Source of the DNA: a virus
Virus record (IMG/VR): IMGVR_UViG_3300022744_000001
Span: 66,022-130,021 of that record
Length of the DNA stretch: 64,000 nt
Strand: one strand, 5' to 3'
The position numbers were made by a program, and so were the translations under genes. This document shows, one piece after another, positions 7,047-54,808 of the stretch (the stretch's first letter is position 1; each line of letters begins with the position of its first letter). Below the pieces are notes generated by a model. That model ran no database searches and was not told the DNA's origin. It was given only the letters and a program-made list of their open reading frames with translations.

Positions 7047-7475
7047 ATGGACTTCCAAAACATCACCTCAGCTCCGACTTTCACTCAGCTTGTGGCGGCC
7101 TTTACCGCGGCCCTTCGTGAGCCGAAGCCAACGATCGTCATACCTGCCGGAACTCCATTTGCTGGGGCGTCGCATACAGCGCCTGGCCCTGACCTGTCGA
7201 AGACCACGATGAAGGCCCTACTGACTCGCTCAGTTCTCACCGGCGGGCTACAGAAAGCCGTGGCCATCTATGCAGGCATGTCTGAGGGCGACCGCAAGAA
7301 GCTCCAGGCTCTCGCAAAGACCGAAACCGGCAAACCAATCCTCACTGCTTTCGCTGAGGCTGATGCGGACGACCTGTCCATTTTCTCGGCGGACGCAGAC
7401 AAGATCGACAACAACCTGACGTTGGCAAGAGGTTGGCTTGTCGATGTCGATGCGACGCCTTGGGTCGCTAACTGA
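7047..7475 (+). CDS. hypothetical protein (142 aa)
   Basis: GGAGAGG RBS; ORF track. Confidence 0.55.
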   Translation: MDFQNITSAPTFTQLVAAFTAALREPKPTIVIPAGTPFAGASHTAPGPDLSKTTMKALLTRSVLTGGLQKAVAIYAGMSEGDRKKLQALAKTETGKPILTAFAEADADDLSIFSADADKIDNNLTLARGWLVDVDATPWVAN

Positions 7476-7830
7476 ACTCCAGCGGTGTACGCCCTTCATG
7501 GGCATGTACTCGAACTACACCGCGAAAAATCAATGCTGGAACTGCCGTGGCGAGAAGCAGGTTACCCGGGAAGACATGAACGGGGACTCGCACTCGCACA
7601 CGTGCGGCTTCTGCGGCGGCACCGGTCTCCCCAACGACGAGCAGCGCCACAAAGCGCAGCTCGAGGCCGAGGGCCTTTGCATCGACTGCGAGTTCCCCGA
7701 AGCCGACCACCCGAACGGGCAAGGGTTCCCTTATGGGTGTCTTCGGCTTCTCACGAAGCAAGTGCATCGACTCCAAGGGCAAGTCGAGGAGCAACAGTTT
7801 CAGCTCAGGTCTCGATTTGGCCGCTGCTGA
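7438..7830 (+). CDS. Cys-rich zinc-finger protein with DnaJ/anti-TRAP-type CxxCxGxG motif (HTCGFCGGTG)
   Basis: ORF track; AAGAGGTTGG before ATG 7438; start ambiguous (7438/7497). Confidence 0.4.
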   Translation: MSMSMRRLGSLTELQRCTPFMGMYSNYTAKNQCWNCRGEKQVTREDMNGDSHSHTCGFCGGTGLPNDEQRHKAQLEAEGLCIDCEFPEADHPNGQGFPYGCLRLLTKQVHRLQGQVEEQQFQLRSRFGRC

Positions 7831-8330
7831 TTGACTGGGGTGTCACGACCGCGCTTGTCGTTGTGGTAGCCCCATTTGATCGTCTCGAGGAGAGCCTCAA
7901 GCTTCTCTTGGACTCCACGTTCAACCTCGACGCCCGTCGCATAACGAAAAGCGCCATACCCCCGGTGCGTCCCGCGAACGACAAACACCTCGTTGGTTTT
8001 GTCGTCGATGACGGTGAGTTCCCAGTTCCAGTCGAACGAGCCATCGCGGTCCCATCGAACCAAGGTCAACCCAACATTCGGGAGCTTCTTGGGCTTCAAA
8101 ACGTGGGCTTCTACTTCAGGCGCAGGGTTGGAAACCGCTACTGGGGCTTGCGTAGGCACCCGCTGAGTGGGCTCGCTCAGAAGAAACGATGCCGGTCTCG
8201 TTTCTGGCTTTGCGTGTAACTCTCCATCGTCGTCCTGACGCCTTCGGAGTACGAGCACGAAACCGAACACCAGCACAACAGCGGTTAGGATGTACGGCAG
8301 ATGAGCTACAGCCATATCGAGGATACTCAT
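7800..8330 (-). CDS. membrane protein (N-terminal TM helix)
   Basis: internal ATG with GAGG RBS; hydrophobic N-terminus. Confidence 0.5.
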   Translation of the reverse strand: MSILDMAVAHLPYILTAVVLVFGFVLVLRRRQDDDGELHAKPETRPASFLLSEPTQRVPTQAPVAVSNPAPEVEAHVLKPKKLPNVGLTLVRWDRDGSFDWNWELTVIDDKTNEVFVVRGTHRGYGAFRYATGVEVERGVQEKLEALLETIKWGYHNDKRGRDTPVNQQRPNRDLS

Positions 8331-8339
8331 AGAAACCTC

Positions 8340-8454
8340 AGTCAATGATGCCGAAGTACATAGCTCGAACGACACGAAACACAACGTATGTCGCGGCGGC
8401 CCAAAGCATCACGCTGATCGGCGCGAGAATGTAGCTGTAGAGTTCTTGACACAC
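8340..8454 (-). CDS. possible 38-aa single-TM peptide
   Basis: GTG start, tight spacing between flanking genes; below ORF-track cutoff. Confidence 0.25.
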
Positions 8455-8457
8455 GAG

Positions 8458-8940
8458 TCAACCCCACGAGAAGAAGAGGCGGATCACGGGGGTCGTAGGG
8501 GAGAGCCCCAATCCCTTCAACTTCGCGCGAAGCTCCTCGAGCTGAGGTCGGAAGTCTTTGTCTATGGGGATCTCGGCAGGGTAGACGTTGAAAGAATACG
8601 TGCCCTCAGACTCCTTGGCGTAGGGGTCGTTGACACAGAACATCATGCCTCCGCCCGGCTCGTTGTACCCGCCGATCCTCGCCACCTTCGCTCCAACCCT
8701 TTTGGCGACCAGCTCAGCCAGCTCATGGGCTCCATCATCGAACCGTTTCCCGTCGATGACATGCCAGGTCCGACGGTGACGATCGACGACTTTCACTGAC
8801 CCTTTCTTCGCGCCAGTCCTTTCATCGAAGCGGTCCTCCATGTGGGACTCTTCGGGAATCTCGTGTTTGAACGGAGCTTCGAACTGCGCCTCGGTAAAAA
8901 CGAAGCCAATTCCCAGTCCAGCTGTGTATGAGGTGCCCAT
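8458..8940 (-). CDS. hypothetical protein (160 aa)
   Basis: ATG 8940 preceded by M2 variant GGTGTAAC-N6-ATG. Confidence 0.55.
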   Translation of the reverse strand: MGTSYTAGLGIGFVFTEAQFEAPFKHEIPEESHMEDRFDERTGAKKGSVKVVDRHRRTWHVIDGKRFDDGAHELAELVAKRVGAKVARIGGYNEPGGGMMFCVNDPYAKESEGTYSFNVYPAEIPIDKDFRPQLEELRAKLKGLGLSPTTPVIRLFFSWG

Positions 8941-9114
8941 GCCCTTGTTACACCGCAGGGGAGGGCAATCGAAATTGCACCCCTCAAGTAAGCCAGTGTC
9001 GCGATGCCTAAGCTAAAGCATAAGGGAGACGCGGATGGTTCATACTGAGCTGCAATAGTTTCCGTTCCCCGAATTTTCTTGTGCTCGGGGTAAGTATCCG
9101 TATCGAGGTGCTCT

Positions 9115-10155
9115 ATGCCACAAGCTCCAACCCCACCGTGGGAAGCTGAGAGGCTCGTCGCGCTCGAGAAACTACGTGTTTTCGGGACTCCCGCAGAAGA
9201 GCGGTTTGATCGGCTCACTAGGCTAGCCTGCAAGACCTTCGGGTTGCCTATCGCGGTCCTCGACCTTCTTGGGGCGGATACCGCTTGGCTCAAGAGCACC
9301 CAGGGGTATCACAAGGTTCGAGCGCCCAGGGCGACGTCGTATTGCGGCTACACGATCTTGCAGGAGAACTCTCTGGTGGTGCCGGACGCGCAGCAGGACC
9401 CGCGCCTCTTCGACAACCCGTACGCCCAGAATTTCCGCTTTTACGCAGGGGTTCCCCTTCGCAGTGCGGGGATGCCAATTGGGGCCTTCTCGGTTTCCGG
9501 CTACACCCCAAGGCTCTGGACAGAGAATGACACCCAGGCCCTCTACGAGTTCGCTCGAGTTGCTGAGTTCGAACTTCGGATCACGAAACTCAGCGAAACC
9601 CAACTCTGTCTCGCAGCAGAGAACGAGGTCAGATACCGTCCCCTCGTTGACGACTTGACGAAGACCTGGAACAAGACCGCGATCATCGAAATTCTGGGGA
9701 GGGAGCTTCGCAAAGCCGCGGAGGCGGACGTCTCCACTGGCATCCTGATGCTCGACATCGACCACTTCAAGAAGGTCAACGAGGAGCGGGGCTACTCCGC
9801 CGGAGACACCCTTTTGCAGGGCCTGGCCGAGCGTCTTCGCGCCGTTCTGCGGCACTCGGACAGCCTGGGGCGGTATGGGGGCGAGGAGTTCGTTGTTGTG
9901 CTTCCTCGATGCACCAGGGAGGACGCTCTCGAGATTGCGGAACGAGTCCGAACCGCGGTGGAGAGCAAACCCTTTGGGGCTATCTCGGCCACGGTATCTG
10001 TGGGGGTCACCGTGGCCGCGGCCCCCTCCCAGAACCACGCCGTTCTACTCCAAGCCGCTGACTTGGCCCTCTATCGAGCCAAGCAGAGGGGTAGAAACCG
10101 GGTCGAGTCTCGTTGGACAACCCCCTCGTTCGCCGCGCTCCGGGCTACGAAGTAG
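9115..10155 (+). CDS. GAF-GGDEF diguanylate cyclase (GGEEF active-site variant, RxxD I-site present)
   Basis: RYGGEEFVVVLP motif, RHSD five residues upstream, N-terminal GAF-like region; GAGGTG RBS. Confidence 0.8.
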   Translation: MPQAPTPPWEAERLVALEKLRVFGTPAEERFDRLTRLACKTFGLPIAVLDLLGADTAWLKSTQGYHKVRAPRATSYCGYTILQENSLVVPDAQQDPRLFDNPYAQNFRFYAGVPLRSAGMPIGAFSVSGYTPRLWTENDTQALYEFARVAEFELRITKLSETQLCLAAENEVRYRPLVDDLTKTWNKTAIIEILGRELRKAAEADVSTGILMLDIDHFKKVNEERGYSAGDTLLQGLAERLRAVLRHSDSLGRYGGEEFVVVLPRCTREDALEIAERVRTAVESKPFGAISATVSVGVTVAAAPSQNHAVLLQAADLALYRAKQRGRNRVESRWTTPSFAALRATK

Positions 10156-10156
10156 G

Positions 10157-10618
10157 TCAGACCGAAGGCACCAGGGACTCAATCGCCCCGGCGGCATGGG
10201 CGGGCCCCAGGATGCGGCGACGGTCCGAGCTGTCGATGAGCACCACCAGGAAGCGGCTGGAGAGGCTCTTGATGATCTGGGTGCCCTCCATCGTGTCTCG
10301 CGTGATCCGGGCCGCTATGGCCGTCAGGCCAGTCTTCTCCTCGAGCTTTCGGAGAGACTCGGTCCGGTCGAAGACGACCCCAACCCGGTCAGGCCGGTGG
10401 ACACTGTCGATGGCGCCGAGCAGCCACAAGCACTTGTACTCCTGGCAGGCTGTGGGCCGAGTCGCATAGCAGTCGCACTTGTGGTTCATCACGTGCGAGC
10501 ACATCTGAAAGGTGCTCTTCTGAATCTCGGGCACCCCCAAGGCGGTGCAGCACTCGTTGCACTGACCGCAGGATCGTCCTTGGGGTTTGGGGGCTTGGGG
10601 GAGACGTCGTTTGCTCAT
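10157..10618 (-). CDS. CxxCxxCC (YkgJ-type) putative zinc/iron-chelating domain protein
   Basis: SCGQCNECC motif plus downstream Cys cluster; AGAGGAGAGC RBS. Confidence 0.55.
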   Translation of the reverse strand: MSKRRLPQAPKPQGRSCGQCNECCTALGVPEIQKSTFQMCSHVMNHKCDCYATRPTACQEYKCLWLLGAIDSVHRPDRVGVVFDRTESLRKLEEKTGLTAIAARITRDTMEGTQIIKSLSSRFLVVLIDSSDRRRILGPAHAAGAIESLVPSV

Positions 10619-10650
10619 GCTCTCCTCTGTGCGCGAGACCAGGCGGAATT

Positions 10651-11061
10651 TCAGCCCTTCGTCGCTTTCTTCTCGGCCCGACGAAGTTCTTTGCGGACGC
10701 GCTTGAGGCGGTCAGAAGCTTCCGGGTAGCCCGGCATGCTCCAAGAGTCCTTGCGAGCCTTCATCGCCCGACCCTTCAACGCCATCACGTGCTTGCGGGC
10801 GGAGGCGTAACGGGCGCGAAGCTCGTCGAGGGTCAGCTCCTTCTTGGCGGCCTTCGGCTGGTTCTGGCCCATGTAGACGCGGAAGCCGCGGGCTTCCAGC
10901 TCAAGGCGAAGGGCCACCTTCGCGGCGTTGACGGCGACTTCGTCGCTCTCGCTCGTGGTGAGCGTCGGGACGTACCCGTTTTTGAGGGAAGCTTCGAGCT
11001 GGCTCCAGCTCGAGAAGGCAGTGACCGTGGTCGTCAGGGTGTTGAGTGCTTGGCTTTCCAT
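10651..11061 (-). CDS. hypothetical protein, Lys-rich C-terminus (136 aa)
   Basis: ATG 11061 abuts M1. Confidence 0.6.
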   Translation of the reverse strand: MESQALNTLTTTVTAFSSWSQLEASLKNGYVPTLTTSESDEVAVNAAKVALRLELEARGFRVYMGQNQPKAAKKELTLDELRARYASARKHVMALKGRAMKARKDSWSMPGYPEASDRLKRVRKELRRAEKKATKG

Positions 11062-11097
11062 GTCCTGGTAACGCGCAGGGGGAGGGGTTTCTATACT
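11062..11097 (-). promoter_or_regulatory. M1 motif (TATAGAAA-N13-GCGTTACCAGGAC-ATG)
   Basis: consensus copy. Confidence 0.55.
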
Positions 11098-11360
11098 GCC
11101 TCGGTCGGGCCCTCATGTTTTTCCGTGCAGGGGCAGCGGTAGGTTGCAAGGTCCTCCTTGGACCGCCACTCCCCTTTGCCCTTGCAGTAGGGGCAGTTGG
11201 GGTCCGGAAATTGAAGGACAGATGGGGTAGCCTGAAGCTCCCGGCGAGCGGCGTCGATGTGTCCCCGGCACTCCCGAAGCGTGAGGTAACACCGGCGCTC
11301 GCTGTGGCCGGTCTCCTTGGAGAGCATCTTCGCCGCGTCTGTGACCAACATGGAACTCAT
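11091..11360 (-). CDS. Cys-rich zinc-finger protein (89 aa)
   Basis: ORF track; ATGA overlap with upstream gene. Confidence 0.45.
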   Translation of the reverse strand: MSSMLVTDAAKMLSKETGHSERRCYLTLRECRGHIDAARRELQATPSVLQFPDPNCPYCKGKGEWRSKEDLATYRCPCTEKHEGPTEAV

Positions 11361-11575
11361 GCTTCGTCCTCGTCGTCAAGGAGTTCGATCTCTTCTTCCA
11401 TGAGGGCCTGTTCCGCCCCCATGACCTCGTCCGCCCCACACTCGGAGCAGGGGTAGCCTTCCGCGTCGGGCTCGACGTCCCCATAGTTCCAGGCGTAGCA
11501 AGCCAAGCAGATGCCGTCGTCTCCAGCAACGTGTTCCTCGTACGCTTCCTGGGTCAGCTTCGGTTTATCAAGCAT
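11357..11575 (-). CDS. acidic zinc-ribbon protein (72 aa)
   Basis: internal ATG with GGAAGGTGG RBS. Confidence 0.45.
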   Translation of the reverse strand: MLDKPKLTQEAYEEHVAGDDGICLACYAWNYGDVEPDAEGYPCSECGADEVMGAEQALMEEEIELLDDEDEA

Positions 11576-11774
11576 TGGCGGCCACCTTCCCGGCTTCCGT
11601 GATCTCGAACACCCGGTAGGAGGCGTAGGTCTGGTCGTTCCAAAAGCTGGTTGCCAAACCCTTTTCGACCAGGGCTTCGAACAGCTTGATTTCACTCTCT
11701 TTGCCTGGGGATTGGCGGCCCTTCTCGGCCAGGAGTGTGAGACGGCGGGATTGCGCTTTGGTCAGTTCAGGCAC
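11568..11774 (-). CDS. small winged-helix-like protein (GTG start)
   Basis: GAGGAGGAAG RBS then GTG overlapping upstream stop. Confidence 0.35.
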   Translation of the reverse strand: MPELTKAQSRRLTLLAEKGRQSPGKESEIKLFEALVEKGLATSFWNDQTYASYRVFEITEAGKVAANA

Positions 11775-12568: not shown

Positions 12569-12802
12569 GGCGTTCTCCCCGGTGAGAGCTTAGCGAAACC
12601 CTTAGCGTTTCCCTGAGCCCCAGCACCGACCACAGTAAGATTGTTGGTGACCGCACAAGCATTTTGTGCAACGTAGCACCAAAACCTTGCAGATCCAGCG
12701 GTAAGTAAGAGCGTGTGGTTGTTTATGCGCTACGGCTCGTGCCGAACACAAAAGCACATCACCCTTATCCGAGAGAAGCTGAGGCGGCTGCAAGAGCTAA
12801 AG

Positions 12803-14827: not shown

Positions 14828-14921
14828 GCTCGGGGTACACCGGTGGTGGTGATTTACTTGTCCTCGGACTTTTGTCGTGGAAGACCTCATTCTCCGAGTA
14901 GCCGCCCGGTACACGTATGCG
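14828..14921. promoter_or_regulatory. divergent intergenic region with M2 copies in both orientations
   Basis: GGTGTACC (minus) and GGTACAC-N7-ATG (plus). Confidence 0.45.
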
Positions 14922-16097
14922 ATGGCCATGGCAGACATTCCCGCTGTAGTGCAGAAGTGGGAATCGTTGATTCAAGCCTATCGAGACGAGGCGCCGAACA
15001 TCGAGAAAGTCGGGGAGTTGTACGAACTCCGCAACAAAGATTACGAGGCATGGCGTGCTCTTGGTCCCGACACGTGGGCCTTCTACGGGCGATGGGAAGG
15101 GAAAACCGTCATCTTCCCCAAAGTCTCGTACGAACTCCTTCGTCGCCTTGGGATCTCCAACGTCTTCCTCTCGCTGCTCCAGCACTACGAGTTGCCACCG
15201 GCCATCCACAAGAAAGTCGAAGCCGCGGCCCGCTTCTACGGTAAAAACGCGCAGAGAATGTCGCGGAAGATCGACGAGGCCGTTGCCCTGTACCGCAAGT
15301 TGTTGACCACGTACGACCAGCACCTTGAACTCGCGAAAGCTGCTCTTACCCAAGGTAAGCCCCGAGGCACGGAGGAGAACAGTACCCAGATCCTCAATGC
15401 GGGACCGTTCAAGGTCGTCAACACGGGGCAGTTCTCTGAGCAGATCATGCAGACTTGCGCAGACGTAGTGCGCAAGGCAGCAAGCAAGCTCCAGAGTAAA
15501 GGGCTCGGCCAGGTTTGCTATGGCCAAGTGCTAGTCTCCAAGCGCGTGGCCGCCAGCACAAGGAACCTCGCATTCTACCGTGTCGCGGACGACGAGCTAT
15601 TCGTCCGAGCTGACCTGAAGGGGGCGGCGTTCAACGAGATTCTCCTCACCGTGCTCCATGAGCTTGGTCACCGCTACTACTTCCGGTTCACCCTGAAGCA
15701 GGCTGAAATCAAGAAGCTCTACTACACACTCAAAGGTCGCAAGGAAGAGTCCGAGGCCCTGCTGGTCAAAGAGGTCCTTGAGGACCCGAACCGGCGGCCT
15801 CAACCTGGAGAAATCGTCGTCCTGAAGAGGGAGACGTACGTGGTGGATGACGTGAAATACGAGCGTGGGGGCTGGCAGGTCAGGATGCATGACCAAACGG
15901 ACCCTAAACTCAAAGCCCACGTCGGACTTGAGCATTGGATTCGCCACAAGGGGTACAAACTCAAAGAGACCCCCAGCGATTTCGTCACGTCATATGCGAA
16001 GACAGACCCCGCCGAGAACTTTGCCGAGATGTTCGCGTACTACTGCGACGACAAGCTCCCCGAGGACCAGGTGGAGATGCTTAAGGCCGTGCTCTGA
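14922..16097 (+). CDS. HExxH zinc-metallopeptidase-like protein (391 aa)
   Basis: LHELGHRYYF motif; start placed by M2-like box. Confidence 0.55.
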   Translation: MAMADIPAVVQKWESLIQAYRDEAPNIEKVGELYELRNKDYEAWRALGPDTWAFYGRWEGKTVIFPKVSYELLRRLGISNVFLSLLQHYELPPAIHKKVEAAARFYGKNAQRMSRKIDEAVALYRKLLTTYDQHLELAKAALTQGKPRGTEENSTQILNAGPFKVVNTGQFSEQIMQTCADVVRKAASKLQSKGLGQVCYGQVLVSKRVAASTRNLAFYRVADDELFVRADLKGAAFNEILLTVLHELGHRYYFRFTLKQAEIKKLYYTLKGRKEESEALLVKEVLEDPNRRPQPGEIVVLKRETYVVDDVKYERGGWQVRMHDQTDPKLKAHVGLEHWIRHKGYKLKETPSDFVTSYAKTDPAENFAEMFAYYCDDKLPEDQVEMLKAVL

Positions 16098-16124
16098 AGG
16101 TATCCCCGACGGTGTAGAGACGGT

Positions 16125-17027: not shown

Positions 17028-17642
17028 CTACACCTTCACGCCGACCTCGAAACGGTGCTTTATGTAGCGGTCGCGCGATTCCCCCTCGAGCGTACTGGGG
17101 AGGGCCCCCCAAGCCCCCTCAGCCTCATGCCCATAGTCATGGTCGAGGAAGACGGTACCGAGCATGTAGTGGTTGAGTTCGTGGATGACGGGGCCGCCGT
17201 TCACCACGGACTGCCGGAATATCGAAGCCCGACAACACAGGAGCGGGATGCGGGGGCCGCCGAAGTTCCGGCCCGTGGACAGGAGCAGCTCGTTGATGCG
17301 GTCCTCGAGCTTCAAGTCGCTCTGCGGGACGTCGTACATTCGGTCGTAGTTCGCATCCTCAGTCACGTGCACCACGATCCACTTCGGCCCTTCTGTCTTG
17401 GCGTACCCCTTCCAGGTTTGGGACAGTGACCAGGACGCCAGGGCCACCGCGTTGGCGATGACTCCCGGGTGGAAAGGGAACATCCCGTCACGATCGTAGA
17501 TCAGCGTGACCCGGTGGCCGAGGTAGTTGCCCTCCATGCGTTGGCCCTCGGGGAGGTTCCACCGGCGCCCCCAGGAAACAACGAAAGCGCCGAGGCCCAC
17601 AACCACAGCCGATGTAACCGCTAGGATGATCGCGCCTGTCAT
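17028..17642 (-). CDS. membrane-anchored HExxH metallopeptidase-like protein
   Basis: N-terminal TM helix; HELNH motif. Confidence 0.55.
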   Translation of the reverse strand: MTGAIILAVTSAVVVGLGAFVVSWGRRWNLPEGQRMEGNYLGHRVTLIYDRDGMFPFHPGVIANAVALASWSLSQTWKGYAKTEGPKWIVVHVTEDANYDRMYDVPQSDLKLEDRINELLLSTGRNFGGPRIPLLCCRASIFRQSVVNGGPVIHELNHYMLGTVFLDHDYGHEAEGAWGALPSTLEGESRDRYIKHRFEVGVKV

Positions 17643-19441: not shown

Positions 19442-19497
19442 GCCCTACGAACGCGTGAGGGATCGACTTTCTATACCGCCCGGTGTAGAAAACGCCA
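19442..19497. promoter_or_regulatory. back-to-back M1 (minus) and M2 (plus) copies
   Basis: CTATACC-GCC-CGGTGTAGAA. Confidence 0.5.
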
Positions 19498-22768: not shown

Positions 22769-23146
22769 TCAGAAAGGGGCCACGTTGGTGTGCGCCTTGA
22801 CCTCAGCCCGGAGCGCCTCGACCATTTCGAGGTGGGCCTTGCCGCGCTTGGTGAGCGCGTCCAGCTTCTTGGAGAGCCCGATCCGCTTGCCGCCGCGGGC
22901 GGCCGTCACGAGCTTGTTGTAGTGCTGCCACTCGAGGCGGAGGTCCACGAGGTCGGCCTCCCAGCGGGCCAAGGTGCCCTTGAGATCCTCACCCGTGCCG
23001 AAGCACTGGGTGCAGGGGAGGGTACGACCCTTGACCGGGTTGGTCTCGCCACGACCCTCACAACGGGGGCACGCATGATGCTCAGCGCGAAGGTGGTTCT
23101 CGTAGTGGTTCGAGTTTTCAGCGGCGGCGGGCTTCTGGTTTTCCAT
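22769..23146 (-). CDS. DnaJ/anti-TRAP-type zinc-finger protein (2x CxxCxGxG)
   Basis: CPRCEGRG and CTQCFGTG; M1 upstream. Confidence 0.55.
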   Translation of the reverse strand: MENQKPAAAENSNHYENHLRAEHHACPRCEGRGETNPVKGRTLPCTQCFGTGEDLKGTLARWEADLVDLRLEWQHYNKLVTAARGGKRIGLSKKLDALTKRGKAHLEMVEALRAEVKAHTNVAPF

Positions 23147-27679: not shown

Positions 27680-28162
27680 TCACCGGATCGCGACCGGGCG
27701 GCCGTTCTGGATCAACCCCGCTTTGACCGCGAAGTCCACGCGCTCCCGAAGCACTTTCCTCAAGACCCTTGGAGGTAGGAGCCCGAGTTCTGTGTATTCA
27801 ATTTCGTTGTCGGCAATCCCGTAGTGCCGGTTGGAGTACACCCACGCTTTCAACGAAATCCCCACCCGACGAGCCACCTCCCGCTCCCACCCAAAGAAGT
27901 CGTATTCCTCGCTCGAGTCTGGCGGCTCCTTGCTGGCGAAGACATGACCCATCTCGTGAATGATGTCCGAAGGGGATATGGGGTAGATAAAGGTGGAGTA
28001 CAGGATGACCTTCTCTTCCCAAATGATCCCCAGGTCTCCCGCACTAAACGGGGCCCCCGCGATGTCGTCGCGCTGATCAAACTCCTCCTCGGTCAGCTCG
28101 ATAAGCTTCCCGCCCCAACCCGTACAGAGTCGAGCCAAACGTCGGATAATGATTTGGCTCAT
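27680..28162 (-). CDS. ImmA/IrrE-like (M78-type) HExxH metallopeptidase
   Basis: IIHEMGHVF plus N-terminal region typical of ImmA/IrrE family. Confidence 0.55.
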   Translation of the reverse strand: MSQIIIRRLARLCTGWGGKLIELTEEEFDQRDDIAGAPFSAGDLGIIWEEKVILYSTFIYPISPSDIIHEMGHVFASKEPPDSSEEYDFFGWEREVARRVGISLKAWVYSNRHYGIADNEIEYTELGLLPPRVLRKVLRERVDFAVKAGLIQNGRPVAIR

Positions 28163-28623
28163 TCCTCCCCCGTCCAGCCGCTCTCAAGAAGCCCTTTCGG
28201 GTCCTGCGTCCACTTGAGCTGGCGCGCAATGTGCTCGAGTCCGGGCCCATCCTTGAGTTCGCTCTCCCTGTAGATCATCGACTCCCACATGCGAGTGATG
28301 AGCAGCCCGTGACCCTCAACCTCGACCAGAGCGAACCGTACGACCTGCCAGCCCCCGTCCTCGTCCCGGCAAACGTGGCGGTAGCCGTAATCGTCCCGAC
28401 GCGCATGGAAGCTCATGGCCGCGTCCTCGGGGCTCGAGCCGACCATCTCATACCACTCGTGGGCAGGTTTGGGGTTCGGCTTGGGCTTCGCGAACCGCAC
28501 GCGGAAGAACGTCTCCGTACCCCGGCCGCCGCAAGCGATGCACGTTTGCTGGGACTTGGGTTGACTGTACTCCCCGTGGAAGCCGTGTCCCCCGCACTTC
28601 TGGCACGCTCGTGTGGCCATCAT
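28159..28623 (-). CDS. DnaJ/anti-TRAP-type zinc-finger protein (CQKCGGHG, CIACGGRG)
   Basis: M1 upstream. Confidence 0.55.
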   Translation of the reverse strand: MMATRACQKCGGHGFHGEYSQPKSQQTCIACGGRGTETFFRVRFAKPKPNPKPAHEWYEMVGSSPEDAAMSFHARRDDYGYRHVCRDEDGGWQVVRFALVEVEGHGLLITRMWESMIYRESELKDGPGLEHIARQLKWTQDPKGLLESGWTGEE

Positions 28624-37598: not shown

Positions 37599-38201
37599 AT
37601 GGACAGAAAATCGAAACGGAACCTGACCCTGTTCTTCACGTTCACCGCGGTGGTCGTCGGGCTCATCGCCTACGGCGTCATCACCCATACCGAGCCGGGT
37701 TTGCAGCAGGCTTGCGCTACGGGCCCGTCCAAGATCGCCAACTACGAGGGCACGTGCTTCGACGTGAAGTGGCCCAAGCTGCCCTTGACCGTGAACTCGT
37801 CCTACGGCTCCAAGACCGACGTCGAGGTTCTGGAGGGCACGGTCAAGCTCGTGAACCAGCGCCTGGGCATGAAGGCCCTCGAGATGACCACGGATGCGAC
37901 TCCCGACGTCCTCGTGATGTTCGGCCAGGCCCCGGACCCCAACGGCGTCATCAAGCACGAGGGCGGCACCACGACGCACTACTTCGGAGCCCTCAACCAA
38001 GCCAGGCACGCGGACGTTCGGGTCTACAACATGACGCTCGTCCAAGAGCTTGCCCCGGCGCTTTACCACGAGCTGGGTCACGTCCTGGGCCTTGCCCACG
38101 ACGACTACGGGGACAGCATCATGATGATCGGCTCAGGGGAGGGCGCGACCATCAGCGACTCGGACCGCAAGCTCCTGCGAAGCATTTACGCCGGGGACTG
38201 A
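37599..38201 (+). CDS. membrane-anchored metzincin-type zinc metallopeptidase (HExxHxxGxxH plus Met-turn)
   Basis: YHELGHVLGLAHDDYGDSIMM; N-terminal signal-anchor; alternative start 37554. Confidence 0.65.
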   Translation: MDRKSKRNLTLFFTFTAVVVGLIAYGVITHTEPGLQQACATGPSKIANYEGTCFDVKWPKLPLTVNSSYGSKTDVEVLEGTVKLVNQRLGMKALEMTTDATPDVLVMFGQAPDPNGVIKHEGGTTTHYFGALNQARHADVRVYNMTLVQELAPALYHELGHVLGLAHDDYGDSIMMIGSGEGATISDSDRKLLRSIYAGD

Positions 38202-39592: not shown

Positions 39593-39611
39593 GGGGAGAG
39601 CTACACCGGAA

Positions 39612-42314: not shown

Positions 42315-42380
42315 GGCTTGCTCCCTTTGGAAAGAGTAACGCGCGAGGGACCGAGAATCTATACCGGTGTAGCTAGGGGC

Positions 42381-43888: not shown

Positions 43889-44236
43889 CTACACCGGGAA
43901 GGGCTTCGGGACCACCGGCTCGATGTGAACGCCGTCATACTCACGAACGTAACGGAACCGGTGCTTGTGCTCGTGGATGAACCTCCGCATGTAGACCCAG
44001 CAATCGTGCCACTCGTACTCCGCCGTCTTGGGGTTGTCGCGGTCGCGGTATTCGCGGAAGAGAAACGATAGGGTTTGGAATGCCCCGAGCGCTTCCCTCT
44101 GCTTCTCGAACTCGAAACACAGGGCGTCTTTCCAAAGGTCCCCTGGAGTGACGATAGGGCTACCCACGAAGATGCCGAGGCGAAACCGGGTCGCGTAGTT
44201 CGTTGGGACCATGTAGAGCGTCGCAGGGGTAGCCAT
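43889..44236 (-). CDS. hypothetical protein (115 aa)
   Basis: M2. Confidence 0.55.
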   Translation of the reverse strand: MATPATLYMVPTNYATRFRLGIFVGSPIVTPGDLWKDALCFEFEKQREALGAFQTLSFLFREYRDRDNPKTAEYEWHDCWVYMRRFIHEHKHRFRYVREYDGVHIEPVVPKPFPV

Positions 44237-46342: not shown

Positions 46343-46696
46343 CTACACCGGGGAGACGCCGTCGAAGATCACCACGAGCTTGTAGTCCTGGTTCGAAGCA
46401 CGCCGTTCCACTTCGATGCTGGCCGCTCCAATCACCATCTTCCGCCGTCGCACCTCAGCGAGGAGCCGGTCCACGAGGAGCTTGACCTTGGACTCGACCT
46501 GCGCCTTGAACGCATCCCCGTAAGCCGCGGGCATCCGACCCGTCTCCATCTGCCGAACCTCCCGCCCGTTGAACCACGCCCAGTCGAGCACGGTGGCATT
46601 CCAAGGCCCAAGGACATGAGCGATACGGAACTCGGGGACGTCGAGCATAAGCCGAGCCAGGACCGTCCAAGCTTCAGTCTTGAGGTCGAACATCAT
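46343..46696 (-). CDS. hypothetical protein (117 aa)
   Basis: M2 located inside 3' end of upstream CDS. Confidence 0.55.
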   Translation of the reverse strand: MMFDLKTEAWTVLARLMLDVPEFRIAHVLGPWNATVLDWAWFNGREVRQMETGRMPAAYGDAFKAQVESKVKLLVDRLLAEVRRRKMVIGAASIEVERRASNQDYKLVVIFDGVSPV

Positions 46697-46890
46697 GCCC
46701 CCGAGCTACACCGGCGTACGAGGACAGCCCCACCACCGATGCCCAGGTGCACAGCCTGACCCTCCTCGAGCCCCTGTAGCTCGAGAACCTCACCCGGGTC
46801 GAGGTCCGGATTCTCCGCCAAGAAGTCCTCGAGCAGGACAGGGGTAGGGGAGCCGGTGAGGTCGGAGAGGTCGAGAAGGACCTGTGTCAC
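46693..46890 (-). CDS. small acidic protein (GTG start)
   Basis: GTGA stop-start overlap. Confidence 0.3.
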   Translation of the reverse strand: MTQVLLDLSDLTGSPTPVLLEDFLAENPDLDPGEVLELQGLEEGQAVHLGIGGGAVLVRRCSSGA

Positions 46891-49602: not shown

Positions 49603-49607
49603 GGGAG

Positions 49608-49949: not shown

Positions 49950-49994
49950 GCAAAGTCCTCCAGGGCGGGAAGTACACCGGGCCGGAAGTGAAAT

Positions 49995-50205
49995 CGGGAC
50001 TGCTACCTGACGGGACTGCTACCCGACCCACTCCCCGGCCCCGCAGGGGCCCCCGGAAAAGGTGCGGTGGGGTTTGCAGGGACCAACGGGCCAGAATTTT
50101 CGAACCGGGGGCCCCTCGGAAAAGCCGGGTCCCGTTTTGGGGGACCACCGGGCCAGAATTAAAAAGACCCCCACCCCCTCCGGCCTGAAAAAGGCGTGAG
50201 GGGGT
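49995..50205. repeat. non-coding repeat cluster: 13-bp direct repeat CGGGACTGCTACC x2; ~60-bp imperfect tandem repeat x2 (core GGGACCAMCGGGCCAGAATT); 7-bp GC hairpin; followed by AT-richer 100 bp
   Basis: seen directly. Confidence 0.6.
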
Positions 50206-50329
50206 AACGCCACCGCAACATATTCGTACGCCAACTGAATGAGGGGTTTTTCGAGTCAAGACCCGTGCCAACACAATAATCAAGCGGTTTTTCTTGCGCC
50301 CTTTTAATTTCGTCGGAGGTACCCACACT

Positions 50330-50560
50330 CTACCTACCCACGACAACCTCACGCTCACCCACGACACAGACCCGGTGTTTGACTACACGCTCGCCACCGT
50401 TGGCATAGTGGGTACCGAGCGCTTCCCACAGTGCGACCTCGGGGGAGATGGCACGGACCTTGTGGCCGGTACCTGTGAGGGTATGGTCTCGCCCGCTCAA
50501 GAGGGTGACATGGTAGGTGAGGGTCATGGGGGAGTAGGGTTGAGTGACTGGCACTGGGGT
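50330..50560 (-). CDS. hypothetical protein (76 aa)
   Basis: GC3-rich frame. Confidence 0.35.
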   Translation of the reverse strand, partial: TPVPVTQPYSPMTLTYHVTLLSGRDHTLTGTGHKVRAISPEVALWEALGTHYANGGERVVKHRVCVVGEREVVVGR

Positions 50561-50576
50561 AGTAGACATACACCCA

Positions 50577-50795
50577 CTAGCCCTTGAAGTTCTGGAGTCG
50601 GCGGATGAGCATGTCCGCGATCGCTTGGGCGGGGGTAGGGCCGTACCCGTGGTGAGGGATGCCCGCCCAGTCTGTGGCCTCAGCGCGAAAGGCCCCCTCG
50701 GACGGGGCGACCGTGGGCGTCCCCCGGAAGAGCTGACAGGCAAGGCCGTTCATCAGGGCCATGTCCTCGCGGGTGCTGCGTTTGGGCGTGCTCAC
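50577..50795 (-). CDS. hypothetical protein (GTG start overlapping upstream stop)
   Basis: GTGA overlap. Confidence 0.4.
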   Translation of the reverse strand: MSTPKRSTREDMALMNGLACQLFRGTPTVAPSEGAFRAEATDWAGIPHHGYGPTPAQAIADMLIRRLQNFKG

Positions 50796-51073
50796 CGGGT
50801 CAGCCTCTCGTACGCGCCACCGGGGGCGAAGAACTCCCCATCATCGAAGTGCTCGCCGCACTTGGCACAACAGTAGGCGAGGTGGATGCCCACACCCCCG
50901 TTGTCCTCGTGGGGTCCCTCGTGCCCGCACTCGGGGCAGGGGAAGCGATTGTGGGCGATGTCCGAGGCTTCCTTGGCCGCGGCGGTGAGGCGGGCTTGCT
51001 TGACGTCCTCGGGGGCGTCCGAGAGCAGGATCTCGACAGCAAGCTCGTCAGCGGTTGGGCGTTTGGCGGTCAT
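50792..51073 (-). CDS. zinc-ribbon protein (CPECG...CAKCG)
   Basis: M1 upstream. Confidence 0.55.
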   Translation of the reverse strand: MTAKRPTADELAVEILLSDAPEDVKQARLTAAAKEASDIAHNRFPCPECGHEGPHEDNGGVGIHLAYCCAKCGEHFDDGEFFAPGGAYERLTR

Positions 51074-51117
51074 GGGTCCTTGTCCTGGTAACGCGCCAGG
51101 GGGCGGGGTTCTATACC

Positions 51118-51954
51118 TCAGAGGCCCGCGGGCCAGGGGTACTTGGTCATGTTGTGGAACTCGGGGTAGTGCATCTTGCCGCGGATGCTCTGGGCCTCGG
51201 GGGTCACTTCGCCGTCCACGATGAGGCCGAAGGCCGCCCACACGTGGTCACGCTCGAGGAGGGCGAGGGCCTGGGCCGTGTTCAGCTCAGAGCGGCTCTT
51301 GCCGGTCAGCTCGCGGAGCTTGCTGGGGGCGTCCTCGAAGATGGTCGCGAGCGTAGACGTGGTGTGGTTCTTGAGGGCCGAGTCAATCCGCTTCTGGTAG
51401 GAGGCGATCTTCTCCGCGAGCTTCTGGGCTCGCTTGTCCTGGACGCGCTTCTGAGCCGTGGCTTTGGTCTCCTCGACCTTGCGGGCAGCTTCCTCGACCG
51501 TCTGGAGGGGCTCGAGCTTCCAAGCCGCGATGCGAGCCTCGCAACGAGCGATGTCTTCCTGGAACCAGCGGATGCTCTGCTTGGTCGCGTGGGTCGTGTT
51601 GCTCAGGAGCAACTCCCAGCCTTCCTCACCCTTGGAGACTTCCACGAACTCGACCGTGCGAGTGACGCGGACCTTGACCTCTTTGAGGAGCTTCGTGACC
51701 TCACCGGCGACCAGCTTGGCCAGGTAGGTCTCAGCGTTCGCGAGCTTGGCCTTGAGGCCGCCCGTGTACTGCTTGAGGACCTCACAGCTCTGCTCGTACG
51801 CGGGCTCGCCCACCGCCATGCAGTCACCGACGATGAAGCCGTGGCCCGGGCGCTTGAACCCGTGGTGCACCATCGTGTGGCCAGCCTTGGGGTTCAGCTT
51901 GAACTGGGCTTCGCAGATTTGGCAGTGTCCGATGTAGCGGGTCTTCGTTTCCAT
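51118..51954 (-). CDS. hypothetical protein with N-terminal Cys/His cluster and coiled coil (278 aa)
   Basis: M1. Confidence 0.6.
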   Translation of the reverse strand: METKTRYIGHCQICEAQFKLNPKAGHTMVHHGFKRPGHGFIVGDCMAVGEPAYEQSCEVLKQYTGGLKAKLANAETYLAKLVAGEVTKLLKEVKVRVTRTVEFVEVSKGEEGWELLLSNTTHATKQSIRWFQEDIARCEARIAAWKLEPLQTVEEAARKVEETKATAQKRVQDKRAQKLAEKIASYQKRIDSALKNHTTSTLATIFEDAPSKLRELTGKSRSELNTAQALALLERDHVWAAFGLIVDGEVTPEAQSIRGKMHYPEFHNMTKYPWPAGL

Positions 51955-51994
51955 GTCCTATGAACGCGCAGGGGGTTGCGGTTCTATACCGAAA

Positions 51995-52258
51995 TCAGAG
52001 CGAGCCTTGACGTGAGCCCAAGAAAATAGCGGCCGTCTGACGAAGGGTAGACGGGGAGATACCTGTGTGCTCCGCGTAGGTGAGGATGGACTCGGCCAGG
52101 GCGAGCCCGTCCACCTTCGCTTGGGTGGGGTTGGTGTCAGCGGCCCGGGTCAGGAAGCGGTAGGCGTTGGCTCGACGGTCACCCTCCCAGCCCGGGTGTT
52201 CCCCGCGGAGGATCTGGGCAAGCTCGTTCAGGACGGTCATGAAGCTGCTCGAGGGCAT
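51995..52258 (-). CDS. hypothetical protein (87 aa)
   Basis: M1 + AAGGAGAC. Confidence 0.55.
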   Translation of the reverse strand: MPSSSFMTVLNELAQILRGEHPGWEGDRRANAYRFLTRAADTNPTQAKVDGLALAESILTYAEHTGISPSTLRQTAAIFLGSRQGSL

Positions 52259-52339
52259 GAGGGTCTCCTTGGCCTATGAACGCACGAGGGTAGGGCCAGG
52301 CTATACCGCGTCGAGTCGAATTTTCCCTGTGAGCGAGCG

Positions 52340-52520
52340 TACGTCCCCGTATAGGGGCGTGACCGCCGAAACGTTACCAAGGGTGTGGTGGGTGGGCGCG
52401 CGTGGGCTAGGCGGGGCCGAAACCTGTCCAGTGGAGGCAGAATCCGCGGGGGACGGGCTCAGCGGGTAAAGGAAAATGCTTGACAAATGAAAACGGCCAA
52501 AACCTCGCCTTTCCGCGGGG
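52340..52520 (+). ncRNA. candidate non-coding transcript: orphan plus-oriented M1 copy followed by CAAGGGTGTGGTGGGTGGG, element X (AACCTGTCCAGTGGAGGCAGAATCCGC) and a 10-bp hairpin
   Basis: no ATG after the M1 downstream half; conserved elements repeated at 53685 and 56440/56900. Confidence 0.3.
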
Positions 52521-52556
52521 TTTTGGCCTAGCCCGTTTAGGGTGACCGCGAGGGGG

Positions 52557-52858
52557 TCAGTATCCGCCGTGCTTGAAGAGGATTTCCCCGGCCGCGGAGG
52601 CAGGCTCTTCGGGGAGGAACTTGAACCGGAGCTTCTTGCCCTCGTGGTCGAGCATCTCGACGGTCATGAAGCGGAAGCCGCGACCGGAGGCGTCCCAGCC
52701 GATGGAGACCCGGGGGTCGGCGTTGAGGGTCGTACGCAGGTCCGGCAAGAGTTTCCGGATCTCCGCGTAGGTGTCGATGGCGAACTGGGTGTAGACCGCT
52801 TCGATGCGCTTGGAGAGAGTGCCGCCACTGGCGGTCCTGTAGTCGTAGTTGTGCATGT
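52557..52858 (-). CDS. hypothetical protein (100 aa)
   Basis: ATG preceded by palindrome TTGTGCGTTGCACAA. Confidence 0.45.
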
Positions 52859-52896
52859 ATGGGCTCCCTATCTTCCTTGTGCGTTGCACAAAGGCT

Positions 52897-53076
52897 TTAC
52901 CACTGGACGGTGAGTTCGATTCGCTTGGTCTCGAGGGCCTCGAGCAGGGCGTCCACCTCGTCGTGGGTTAGGCCAGTGCCTTCCCGCAGGACCTCGTCGA
53001 TGGCCTGGGGCCGGGCCAGCCCTTGGGCTTCCTTGGCTTGTACGCGCTCGAGAACCGCTTGGGTCTTGGTGTTCAT
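52897..53076 (-). CDS. hypothetical protein (59 aa)
   Basis: GAGAGG RBS. Confidence 0.4.
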   Translation of the reverse strand: MNTKTQAVLERVQAKEAQGLARPQAIDEVLREGTGLTHDEVDALLEALETKRIELTVQW

Positions 53077-53090
53077 GTCCTTGCCTCTCA

Positions 53091-53288
53091 TCAGTCCGGG
53101 GTGTGCCGTTGGTACTCCGACGTCATGGCTTCCAGGACCTCTTGCAGGTCCTCGCCGGTGAAGAAGCGTTCTGCCTTGCGGTATGCCTTCTCCAGCTCCT
53201 GGTCGGTCTTGCACGTACGCGCCAGGGCGATCAGCTGGTCGTAGGTCTCGCTGACATCGTAGCCAGTAGGCTTCTTCTTGCGTGCCAT
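53091..53288 (-). CDS. hypothetical basic protein (65 aa)
   Basis: M1. Confidence 0.5.
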   Translation of the reverse strand: MARKKKPTGYDVSETYDQLIALARTCKTDQELEKAYRKAERFFTGEDLQEVLEAMTSEYQRHTPD

Positions 53289-53327
53289 GTCCTATGAACG
53301 CGCGAGGGGGCTCGAGCCTATACCGGC

Positions 53328-53603
53328 TCAGCGGCCCTGGTCGATGCGGTAGGCCAGCTCGGATTTGGCGCGCACCAGGGCGTCGGCCAGGTAGAGGGTC
53401 TTCTCGGATACGTCCCCGACAGGGCGATGGGTGATGCGGCGGGTCAGGTAGAGCGTCACCTGCTCCCAGGCTCGAGCCATCGCGGAGGCACGCTTCCGGG
53501 CCTCCTCCGTGGTCGCGTGGTTCCAAGCCAGGTCCTGCCACATCCCGATCAGGGCGGCGGACTGGGTACGGGCAGAGTGAAGGGCGATGATTCGTGCGTA
53601 CAT
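53328..53603 (-). CDS. hypothetical protein (91 aa)
   Basis: M1. Confidence 0.55.
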   Translation of the reverse strand: MYARIIALHSARTQSAALIGMWQDLAWNHATTEEARKRASAMARAWEQVTLYLTRRITHRPVGDVSEKTLYLADALVRAKSELAYRIDQGR

Positions 53604-53684
53604 GCCCTAGAAACGCGCGAGCCAGCTCGAGCCTATACCGAAAACGACCACGAACTTTCCTTGTGGGCGAGCACACGTCCAGGT

Positions 53685-53860
53685 TTAGACCGAGCCGTCC
53701 CGGTGCGTTACCAAGGGTGTGGTGGGTGGGAGCCCCCCGGGCGGGCGTCCGGGACCTCGAGCCAAGAAAAACGACATGGCACGAAGATTGTCCGGGGGAT
53801 CTTTCGAACTCGAGCATATAGAAGGCCCCCAGAGGGCCGGGCACATAGAACCCGCAACCC
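53685..53860 (+). ncRNA. second candidate non-coding transcript: orphan plus M1-like copy + CAAGGGTGTGGTGGGTGGG
   Basis: homologous to 52300-52390 element; only ORF after it is A/R/P/G-rich and antisense to a supported gene. Confidence 0.25.
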
Positions 53861-53866
53861 GGGCGG

Positions 53867-54085
53867 CTAGGGCTCGTCCACCTGGGCCACCTTGTGCACC
53901 CGGGGCTCGAGCGAGCTGAGCCGCACCCGCTTCTCCACCAGCTCCCAAACCCCCCGCCGACAAACCGCCACCCGGATCGTCGCCCTCACCCGCGACACCC
54001 GAACCACCACGGCCGCCACCGAGAACGTGAAGCCGTACCCGCCCCGGGACTCATGCCGCCACGTAACACGGTCACCAGCCTTCAC
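53867..54085 (-). CDS. hypothetical protein (GTG start, AAGAGGTAG RBS)
   Basis: RBS. Confidence 0.45.
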   Translation of the reverse strand: MKAGDRVTWRHESRGGYGFTFSVAAVVVRVSRVRATIRVAVCRRGVWELVEKRVRLSSLEPRVHKVAQVDEP

Positions 54086-54189
54086 GGGCTACCTCTTACG
54101 CTGGAGCTGGAAAAGTTCACAAGTGGGCCTCGAGCGGAGAGCGGAATTTGCTTGCTCAAGAAAAGTGCCCTCAACTACCCCTTTTGTCG

Positions 54190-54223
54190 GCCGGTATAGA
54201 ACTGGCCTACCTGGGGCGTTATC
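54190..54223 (+). promoter_or_regulatory. M1 motif (plus)
   Basis: TATAGAAC-N13-GCGTTATC-ATG. Confidence 0.5.
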
Positions 54224-54457
54224 ATGGTCATGAGGATGGCGGTTCAATCTGAGCGTGCGCAACGAGTCGTGAGGCTGGCAGCTGAGGAGGCTGCGAAGCC
54301 CACGACGTCCTTCCTGTTCGCCACGGATGGTCTCGGGGCGTTTGCGGCCCGGGCCGAGGCGATCCTGGCCGACACGGCGGATGCGGCCAAGTCGGTTGGG
54401 ATGAGCGAAGCCGAGCACGAGGCGTATGTAGCCCGCTTCCTCTGCTACGAGGTGTGA
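54224..54457 (+). CDS. hypothetical protein (77 aa)
   Basis: M1. Confidence 0.5.
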   Translation: MVMRMAVQSERAQRVVRLAAEEAAKPTTSFLFATDGLGAFAARAEAILADTADAAKSVGMSEAEHEAYVARFLCYEV

Positions 54458-54460
54458 GCC

Positions 54461-54808
54461 ATGGAGACGATCGTCGAGCTGTGTCCGAAGTGCCAGGGGA
54501 CGGGAAACCTCCCCCAGTACGCCCACGTGCAGAACGGCGTGTGCTTCCGCTGCTCCGGCACGGGTCGCGACCTCCGAGCCGAGCTTGCCACGGCCGTCCA
54601 GAAGCTCGCTCGAGCACGTCGGGAGTGGCAGAGCCTCAACCGGACCAGCAAGCGCGCCAGGGGCGTCCACAAACGCCACATGAAGGAAGAACTCGACCTC
54701 CTCACCCGCGAGGGTAAACAGCTCCGGAAGCACGTGGACACCCTCCAAGCCGCTATCGCCGGTCGTATCCAACTACCCTCTCCCCGTACAAACTCAAATC
54801 ACGTGTAG
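54461..54808 (+). CDS. DnaJ/anti-TRAP-type zinc-finger protein (CPKCQGTG, CFRCSGTG) with helical C-terminus
   Basis: GAGGTGTGAG RBS. Confidence 0.55.
   Translation: METIVELCPKCQGTGNLPQYAHVQNGVCFRCSGTGRDLRAELATAVQKLARARREWQSLNRTSKRARGVHKRHMKEELDLLTREGKQLRKHVDTLQAAIAGRIQLPSPRTNSNHV

Follow-up and report, generated by a model that had tools for sequence, protein, structure and literature searches.

The 64,000-nucleotide (nt) stretch of viral DNA that spans positions 66,022 to 130,021 of the IMG/VR record IMGVR_UViG_3300022744_000001 (hereafter, the window) encodes several small proteins with the motif CxxCxGxG, a half-site of the zinc fingers of DnaJ and of the Bacillus protein anti-TRAP. These genes raise the question of whether they belong to one group of related proteins and with which activity they can be associated. 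An initial annotation described four of them, at positions 7438, 22769, 28159 and 54461, as DnaJ/anti-TRAP-type zinc fingers within a battery of small zinc-finger proteins of the kind found in phage early regions, possibly acting in host takeover. The set is heterogeneous, consisting of one conserved paralogous family and three ORFans, and is real and ordinary in kind. The best explanation overall, to which a probability of about 0.5 is given, is that these are genuine zinc-knuckle genes of a huge phage that do not form one family, and that the two paralogues among them, P2 and P4, are small regulators binding nucleic acid or a polymerase.

Zinc-knuckle genes of the window

Motifs were located by a six-frame scan, and genes were predicted with a codon-usage model that was trained iteratively on the long open reading frames (ORFs) of the window and yielded 107 genes covering 76% of its length. 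The scan found nine copies of CxxCxGxG, seven of which lie in the four genes named initially, one in 11091-11360 (-) and one in 12602-12793 (-). Within the 107 called genes, eight copies are observed where within-protein shuffles predict 0.028 (maximum 1 in 2000 shuffles). The less specific motif CxxC is enriched as well (32 copies compared to 4.6 +/- 2.1 expected from such shuffles), with about 12 genes carrying at least two of them, in agreement with the earlier remark that the window holds many other small CxxC proteins. All four listed genes are real, but the list was incomplete, as a fifth gene, 11091-11360 (-), carries the half-site CPYCKGKG. The five genes, designated P1 to P5 (Table 1), are all in the called set and have positive codon-usage scores. 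The ninth motif (CGRCWGSG, 12611-12634 (-)) lies in a 63-amino-acid (aa) ORF that was dropped by the gene caller and, being without coding support, was rejected.

The loci had likewise been placed correctly, but 22769 and 28159 mark the stop codons of genes on the minus strand, and 7438 is probably not a true start. For P1, the ATG at 7498 is the more probable start compared to the TTG at 7438, since it is also the start in the public gene prediction for the source contig and the extension 7438-7497 has a coding score of -2.9, compared to +9.8 for P1. All P1 motifs are located 3' of position 7498.

The two CxxC pairs are separated by 15 residues in P2, 16 in P4 and P5, 17 in P3 and 19 in P1. 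These spacings fit a zinc knuckle with one Zn(Cys4) centre, and none incompatible with such a structure was encountered. In the proposed model, two half-sites of the CxxCxGxG type, spaced by 15-19 residues, would fold into one structural Zn(Cys4) knuckle hairpin per protein. The same mini-module is present as a single copy in anti-TRAP and in lambda Q, while DnaJ has two. The knuckle would serve as a zinc-stabilised binding surface, with the attached domain conferring specificity or oligomerisation.

P1, in which the first half-site is degenerate, contains a third CxxC (CIDC), two more cysteines and a helix-like C-terminal tail. The knuckle of P3 is followed by a domain of ~115 aa; a single-sequence AlphaFold2 (AF2) model of P3 was discarded (pLDDT 43). 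P5 carries a CPC 16 residues after its half-site and may form a mixed-type Cys4 site. No match to P1 or P3 was found by tblastn against 50,697 phage records or in scans of IMG/VR, and a word-indexed search of 5.8 billion proteins returned only the query itself for P3 and for P4. At the level of sequence, P1, P3 and P5 are ORFans without detectable relatives, in which the same kind of knuckle is carried by unrelated bodies.

The P2/P4 family

P2 and P4 are the only related pair in an all-against-all BLASTP comparison of the 107 window proteins (35% identity over 92 residues, E = 3e-15), and the idea that the four genes are one battery by descent therefore does not hold. When 1.84 billion cluster representatives were scanned in full with a HMMER profile of P2 and P4, 200 proteins were identified at E <= 1e-3, of which 16 reach E <= 1e-10; these strong matches are 96-118 aa in length and align over their full length (for example, P0002 with E = 6e-37 and P0003 with E = 2e-35). 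All members of the family are metagenomic and none is named; they are located on contigs of up to 432 kb and on IMG/VR contigs of 110-416 kb.

In an alignment of 30 family members, M1, C11, G13, G15, C28, C31 and G85 are invariant, while C8, G33, G35, L49 and R53 are kept in at least 90% of the sequences. The spacing between the CxxC pairs is 15-16 residues in 29 of the 30 proteins, the last being truncated with a single CxxC. All 30 are basic, with an isoelectric point (pI) of 8.4-10.4. Two subtypes can be distinguished. Most members are of the P4 type, with the signature C..C.G.G-x5-[FY]xHVxxG[VI]CFxCWGxGxD, while a second subtype, comprising P2, P0002, P0003 and P0008, has a 15-residue spacing and lacks the HV/CF signature. 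P2 and P4 thus belong to the family by full-length homology and by the conserved Cys4 set, the xGxG glycines, L49, R53 and G85, whereas P1, P3 and P5 fall outside it.

The AF2 model of P4, computed with the family alignment as input, has a mean pLDDT of 90.3 and a pTM of 0.73. It predicts a compact knuckle without helices for residues 1-37 and an antiparallel hairpin of two long helices (38-65 and 69-103); the two 10-residue blocks that cover knuckle positions 11-30 average pLDDT 92-95. On these alignments and this model, P2 and P4 are old paralogues in a metagenome-only family of basic proteins with a knuckle and a helical hairpin.

The knuckle in other proteins and a possible link to nucleic acids

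Small zinc-knuckle proteins of this type are already known in phages and occur in several PHROG families of unknown function (phrog_37598, 4046, 32167, 9961 and 4095). According to tblastn searches of phage genomes, small proteins of cultured phages begin with a P4-type knuckle and continue into unrelated C-terminal parts, the hosts including Arthrobacter (Abba gp52), Synechococcus (S-CBS4 gp099), Staphylococcus/Mammaliicoccus, Acidithiobacillus, Gordonia and Pseudomonas. The corresponding genes are all located in non-structural arms and are annotated as 'hypothetical', except for one motif-based 'DnaJ-like chaperonin'. Abba gp52 and S-CBS4 gp099 share the P4-type knuckle including [FY]xH[VI]xxGxCFxCxGxG, but differ from P2/P4 in having C-terminal parts that are not related to the helical hairpin.

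Bacterial knuckles were sought with a degenerate DNA pattern for HVxxG[VI]CFxCWG, which was found on ten bacterial contigs, seven of them from Bacteroidota. On six of the ten (five Bacteroidota and one Opitutaceae), the knuckle is a C-terminal module that follows a domain of the form CxxC...HH...N...CxxCH...H, which matches the HNH region of IscB with E = 1.4e-6 and 4.1e-6. A profile search of PDB sequences with this domain gave no match. The knuckle of these HNH-like nucleases is near-identical to that of the P4 type (C.RC.G.GY[IL]P.[FY].HV..G[IV]CF.CWG), but it follows a nuclease domain, whereas P2/P4 have no nuclease motif and carry the helical hairpin instead. Furthermore, on jumbo-phage contigs the full knuckle and hairpin protein is extended by a CxCxnCxH (SWIM-like) tail. 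The DNA polymerases of HMO-2011-type phages contain a partial DnaJ insert with two CXXCXGXG motifs, and the two-repeat module has been recognised as a mobile unit of phage proteins (PMC9038755).

Because of the HNH and SWIM-like fusions, the insert in phage polymerases, the double motif shared with lambda Q and the uniformly basic charge, a role of the P2/P4 family on nucleic acid or on nucleic-acid enzymes is favoured by analogy. P2 and P4 would most likely bind nucleic acid itself or an enzyme acting on it, for example RNA polymerase (RNAP), and would be small regulators rather than DnaJ-type co-chaperones. Several points weigh against this interpretation. The fusions are guilt by association, and the HNH assignment is itself sub-threshold in Pfam, with 20.3 bits compared to a gathering cut-off of 21.4. 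They bear only on the P4-type knuckle and not on P1, P3 and P5, nor strictly on P2, which is without HV/CF. In addition, no gene neighbour is conserved across the family loci, where the members always lie among small unknown genes; a conserved operon partner was accordingly rejected, and only one closely related phage shows local synteny with the window. A nucleic-acid role common to all five proteins is unlikely, since P1 and P3 are acidic to neutral.

Comparison with Q, anti-TRAP and DnaJ

Judged by family thresholds, the five proteins are not members of the DnaJ, anti-TRAP or Q families. All matches to DnaJ, anti-TRAP/RtpA, TIGR02642 and Q-like PHROG models span the knuckle only, and a profile search of PDB sequences retrieved DnaJ (1exk, E = 0.031) and RtpA (3lcz, E = 0.035) through single half-sites only. 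The initial description as DnaJ/anti-TRAP-type fingers is apt insofar as the CxxCxGxG half-site is the same and these families are among the top weak matches, but it does not extend to membership, with scores of about half the cut-off or less.

The phage-encoded lambda Q (NC_001416) has a single Cys4 site at approximately residues 118-147, with the half-sites CRDCHGTG and CGRCKGVG. A zinc finger made of two CxxCxGxG half-sites is thus shared with the P2/P4 family, and an alignment of the P2/P4 knuckle with lambda Q by hhalign has a probability of 60% and E = 9e-5 over 33 columns. In contrast, lambda Q is 207 aa in length with extra DNA- and RNAP-binding regions, its spacing is 22 residues compared to 15-16 in the P2/P4 family, and no significant full-length similarity was detected between the two. 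The double motif of lambda Q explains the weak 'Q-like' signals, i.e., the knuckle-only matches to the Q-like phrog_6060 (E = 1e-3) and phrog_127 (E = 0.036), the 16 bits of P2 and P4 with TIGR02642 (cut-off 101.4) and the precomputed 'weak' match to PF27659 (CHP02642) in two members of the family.

Anti-TRAP (RtpA/YczA) of Bacillus is the closest analogue of an alternative explanation, in which the knuckles sit on an oligomerising helical scaffold and block host proteins early in infection, in host takeover or anti-defence. In anti-TRAP, itself a small protein, two CxxCxGxG motifs make up a single zinc ribbon, and the helix C-terminal to this ribbon brings about oligomerisation (PMC11255114), so that the layout is the same in miniature. 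Its models are among the best weak matches: P2, P4 and P5 reach 13.7-19 bits with PF15777 (cut-off 32), and P1, P2 and P4 reach 15.1-18.4 bits with the NCBIfam model NF058604 (cut-off 65), while P1 and P3 have no match to the former and P3 and P5 none to the latter. The location of the genes among small accessory ORFans, a Tad2-like anti-defence domain elsewhere in the window and the position of the module among small hypothetical genes in the non-structural arms of cultured phages also agree with an inhibitor. Beyond these sub-threshold scores (15-19 bits compared to 32 and 65), however, anti-TRAP differs in being 53 aa in length with a 10-residue spacing and in forming trimers or dodecamers, compared to 89-154 aa and 15-19 residues here. 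It has one C-terminal helix, whereas P4 is predicted to have a two-helix hairpin, and its target, TRAP, is specific to trp regulation in Bacillus. The uniformly basic charge of the P2/P4 family, the fusion of its knuckle to nucleases elsewhere and the lack of any defence-model match by PADLOC among the 107 window proteins further argue against inhibitors of the anti-TRAP kind, which are a serious possibility of distinctly lower probability than regulators binding nucleic acid or a polymerase.

A weaker case can be made for the absence of any common function, in which the CxxCxGxG pair is a cheap stabiliser of tiny proteins that was recruited independently, and the battery is merely compositional. 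P2 and P4 being the sole related pair, the differences of P1, P3 and P5 in body and charge, the unrelated CxxC pairs in about 12 genes of the window and the finding that on related contigs CxxCxGxG is present in the P4 homologue only are all in line with this. Five genes of the xGxG type in 64 kb are far above chance, however, and the xGxG glycines are kept across the P2/P4 family, which implies a constrained knuckle geometry rather than an arbitrary Cys4 site. Independent recruitment is therefore improbable as an account of the whole set, and it is compatible with the preferred explanation for P2 and P4.

The comparison with DnaJ is the least favourable. The half-site consensus CxxCxGxG is identical to that of the DnaJ cysteine-rich domain (PF00684), and the spacing of the paired half-sites is similar to that of the inner zinc centre of DnaJ. 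DnaJ, on the other hand, has four repeats, two zinc centres, a J domain and C-terminal domains, whereas the proteins described here have one or two repeats each. The proposed check with the DnaJ_CXXCXGXG model gave 16.0-18.7 bits compared to a gathering cut-off of 32.7, and the NCBIfam DnaJ models gave 9-15 bits compared to cut-offs of 338-585. In searches with Pfam and NCBIfam models, none of the five proteins matched a J domain, a G/F region or the C-terminal domain of DnaJ, and the Pfam search was negative for the J domain (PF00226) even at E <= 10. A DnaJ-like chaperone or holdase, binding unfolded or assembling phage proteins in the manner of the DnaJ zinc domain or of plant BSD2, is consequently doubtful in spite of the recurrent weak matches to DnaJ_CXXCXGXG and BSD2_CRD (18.6 bits, cut-off 27), the same knuckle in the 'DnaJ-like chaperonin' Abba gp52 and a weak J-domain (PF00226) match in a 347-aa protein (L008 10343-11386, contig SRR8164866_45000) 4 kb from a family member on another huge-phage contig, as there are two repeats instead of four, every score is below its cut-off, the Abba annotation is a motif-level transfer, and a basic helical hairpin and nuclease fusions are ill-suited to a holdase.

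A coiled-coil hairpin together with a C4 zinc finger is also present in DksA/TraR and in HP0958/CT398. A DksA/Gre-like secondary-channel factor was rejected, as in DksA/TraR a hairpin with an acidic tip (DxxDxA) precedes a C-terminal C4 finger, whereas the domain order of P2/P4 is reversed and the tip of the hairpin is not acidic.

Promoter-like elements upstream of the knuckle genes

Two recurrent elements precede many genes of the window. The first, element A, is GTATAG-N17-CGTT, of which 28 copies are present compared to 0.02 expected. Its consensus is cCGGTATAGAa.C.CG..cCCT.GCGCGTTc.tAGGaCATGG, and 25 of the copies align without gaps. For 25 of the 28 copies, an ORF of 40 aa or more that begins with ATG lies within the next 45 nt, and in 12 cases the ATG is located exactly 8 nt after CGTT. 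The geometry is that of a hexamer, a 17-nt spacer, a CGTTnn hexamer, 6 nt and the ATG, and element A accordingly looks like a phage-specific bipartite promoter that would give rise to leaderless mRNA. A CGT-containing -10 region recalls extracytoplasmic function (ECF)-type sigma factors. The exact pattern was not detected at related-phage loci, and the element thus appears specific to this phage. As a point against the promoter interpretation, element A could instead be a single upstream element combined with a conserved 5' untranslated region.

Since element A directly precedes P2, P3 and the unit that contains P4 (Table 1), these genes are probably co-regulated with many other small genes. 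In the proposed model, P2, P3 and the P4 operon would be transcribed from the phage's own GTATAG-N17-CGTT class of promoters, together with many small accessory genes. A long shot, resting on analogy, is that the P2/P4 family represents a new class of huge-phage transcription factors, in which the knuckle would contact RNAP or DNA in the way of the lambda Q finger and the basic hairpin would read or clamp nucleic acid. Such factors could act on the GGT(A/G)TAG-type elements of the phage, which are abundant in the window and seemingly drive leaderless mRNAs.

Element B is CGGTGTAG, or (ACA)CCGGTGTAG, with 16 copies compared to 1.3 expected. Each of the 16 precedes an ORF of 40 aa or more whose ATG start lies 7-11 nt downstream, and several mark gene starts that the gene caller missed or misplaced (44477, 59230, 34980 and 42381). 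Sometimes the element takes the form of a divergent palindrome, CTACACCGGTGTAG (19470-19488 and 42358-42372). The ATG of P1 at 7498 is preceded by an element B with one mismatch. A further copy at 7515-7522 (-) points at an 85-aa ORF, 7248-7505 (-), which overlaps 7047-7475 (+) and the first codons of P1. This ORF was rejected as a real gene overlapping P1 (coding score -9.0); the copy of element B is either non-functional or belongs to an unusual overlapping gene.

Neighbouring genes and phage context

The start codon of a 160-aa gene overlaps the stop codon of P3 (ATGA), which suggests translational coupling, so that both proteins are probably made together. No family match was obtained for the 160-aa protein, and Pfam searches of ten neighbouring genes gave nothing usable. 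Directly 5' of P4, a 77-aa gene probably shares its transcript. On the other side, P4 adjoins a convergent gene for a 234-aa basic protein with strong codon bias and two internal repeats. A related contig also carries homologues of these two genes side by side (L003 3592-4203 for the 234-aa protein), there in one and the same orientation.

Table 1 Features of the window, with positions counted from its first nucleotide
Feature	Position	Strand	Description
P1	7498-7830	+	110-aa ORFan (130 aa from TTG 7438), pI 6.2; CGFCGGTG 7603-7626 (+), strict; CWNCRGEK 7534-7557, degenerate first half-site
P2	22769-23146	-	125 aa, predicted zinc knuckle and helical hairpin, pI 9.0, paralogue of P4; CPRCEGRG 23048-23071 (-), CTQCFGTG 22991-23014 (-)
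P3	28159-28623	-	154-aa ORFan, N-terminal knuckle, pI 6.4; CQKCGGHG 28582-28605 (-), CIACGGRG 28519-28542 (-)
P4	54461-54808	+	115 aa, predicted zinc knuckle and helical hairpin, pI 10.4; CPKCQGTG 54482-54505 (+), CFRCSGTG 54542-54565 (+)
P5	11091-11360	-	89 aa; CPYCKGKG 11172-11195 (-), CPC 16 residues on; GAGGA ribosome-binding site upstream
160-aa gene	27680-28162	-	ATG overlaps P3 stop codon; HEMGH (HExxH) motif
77-aa gene	54224-54457	+	directly 5' of P4
234-aa gene	54994-55698	-	convergent with P4
Element A before P2	23158-23184	-	ends 11 nt before start codon
Element A before P3	28640-28666	-	ends 16 nt before start codon, GAGG Shine-Dalgarno between
Element A before 54224-54457 and P4 unit	54194-54220	+	ends 3 nt before unit start
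Element A	19450-19476	-	example
Element A	35356-35382	+	example
Element A	51963-51989	-	example
Element A	53297-53323	-	example
Element A	62794-62820	+	example
Element B	16110-16117	+	example
Element B	30478-30485	-	example
Element B	39601-39608	-	example
Element B	43889-43896	-	example
Element B	46343-46350	-	example
Element B	46706-46713	-	example
Element B	59214-59221	+	example
Vault-like ORF	30822-33458	+	878 aa
GAF and GGDEF gene	9115-10155	+	diguanylate cyclase
HExxH gene	14877-16097	+	metalloprotease-like motif
HExxH gene	17028-17642	-	metalloprotease-like motif
HExxH gene	37554-38201	+	metalloprotease-like motif
CGQCNECC gene	10157-10618	-	153 aa
tRNA-Ala(CGC)	34565-34655	+	91 nt

The window has a G+C content of 60.8%. 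The exact sequence of P4 is also encoded on a 448,224-bp metagenome contig (ENA ERZ27252002, k141_47206), of which position 390,733 corresponds to position 1 of the window and the end to position 57,492. The last 6.5 kb of the window (57493-64000) extend past the end of this contig, which carries P1 and P4; the window therefore derives from a longer, differently cut or circularly permuted assembly of the same element. On account of the size of the contig, the PHROG matches (18 families at E <= 1e-5) and homologues in published huge phages, the source is a huge phage of at least 448 kb, and the phage character assumed from the beginning is confirmed. A megablast search with 10 kb of the window gave no match among the 50,697 phage records.

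Small genes on both strands make up a mosaic, in which no structural or replication genes were recognised and which looks like a huge-phage accessory region. Pfam searches of the 107 proteins identified Tad2-like (Thoeris anti-defence), TacA1-like antitoxin, Multiubiquitin, Phage_ProQ_C_like, DUF6573 (E = 1e-31) and DUF2158 domains, and weak matches to Peptidase_M10 and Peptidase_Mx are also present in the summary. Metalloprotease-like HExxH motifs (LHELGH, IHELNH, IHEMGH and YHELGHVLGLAHDD) occur in four proteins, one of which is the 160-aa neighbour of P3. A scan of the window with Rfam gave no match, while ARAGORN predicted an unusually long tRNA-Ala(CGC) that overlaps ORFs on the opposite strand and may be either interrupted by an insertion or a false positive.

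Among the other genes, a homologue of the major vault protein has the top coding score of the window. Pfam assigns to it an MVP_shoulder domain, with 73 bits compared to a gathering cut-off of 25, as well as Vault_3 and Vault repeat domains. It is 37% identical over 91-98% of its length to proteins of the uncultured huge phages LR756500 (462 kb), LR756501 and LR756503 (735 kb each); a single literature search did not retrieve any publication on huge-phage vault proteins. A GAF and GGDEF protein (GGDEF, E = 1.9e-39) represents a phage-carried gene for a c-di-GMP synthase. A CGQCNECC cluster (CxxCxxCC) and further cysteines are present in a 153-aa protein that is unrelated to the CxxCxGxG genes and may be an Fe-S or zinc protein.

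Implications

For this window alone little changes, as the zinc-knuckle genes stay accessory, and the vault-protein homologue and the promoter-like elements are arguably of greater interest. Small zinc-knuckle proteins are nevertheless among the commonest unexplained genes of phages, and motif matches readily yield labels such as 'DnaJ-like chaperonin' or 'Q-like', which fail the family thresholds here. What is gained is a conserved family of proteins with a knuckle and a basic hairpin, as well as a knuckle subtype that is common to this family and to HNH-like nucleases. For the P2/P4 family, binding of nucleic acid or of a polymerase is thereby put forward as a concrete hypothesis that can be tested on soluble proteins of 100 aa.

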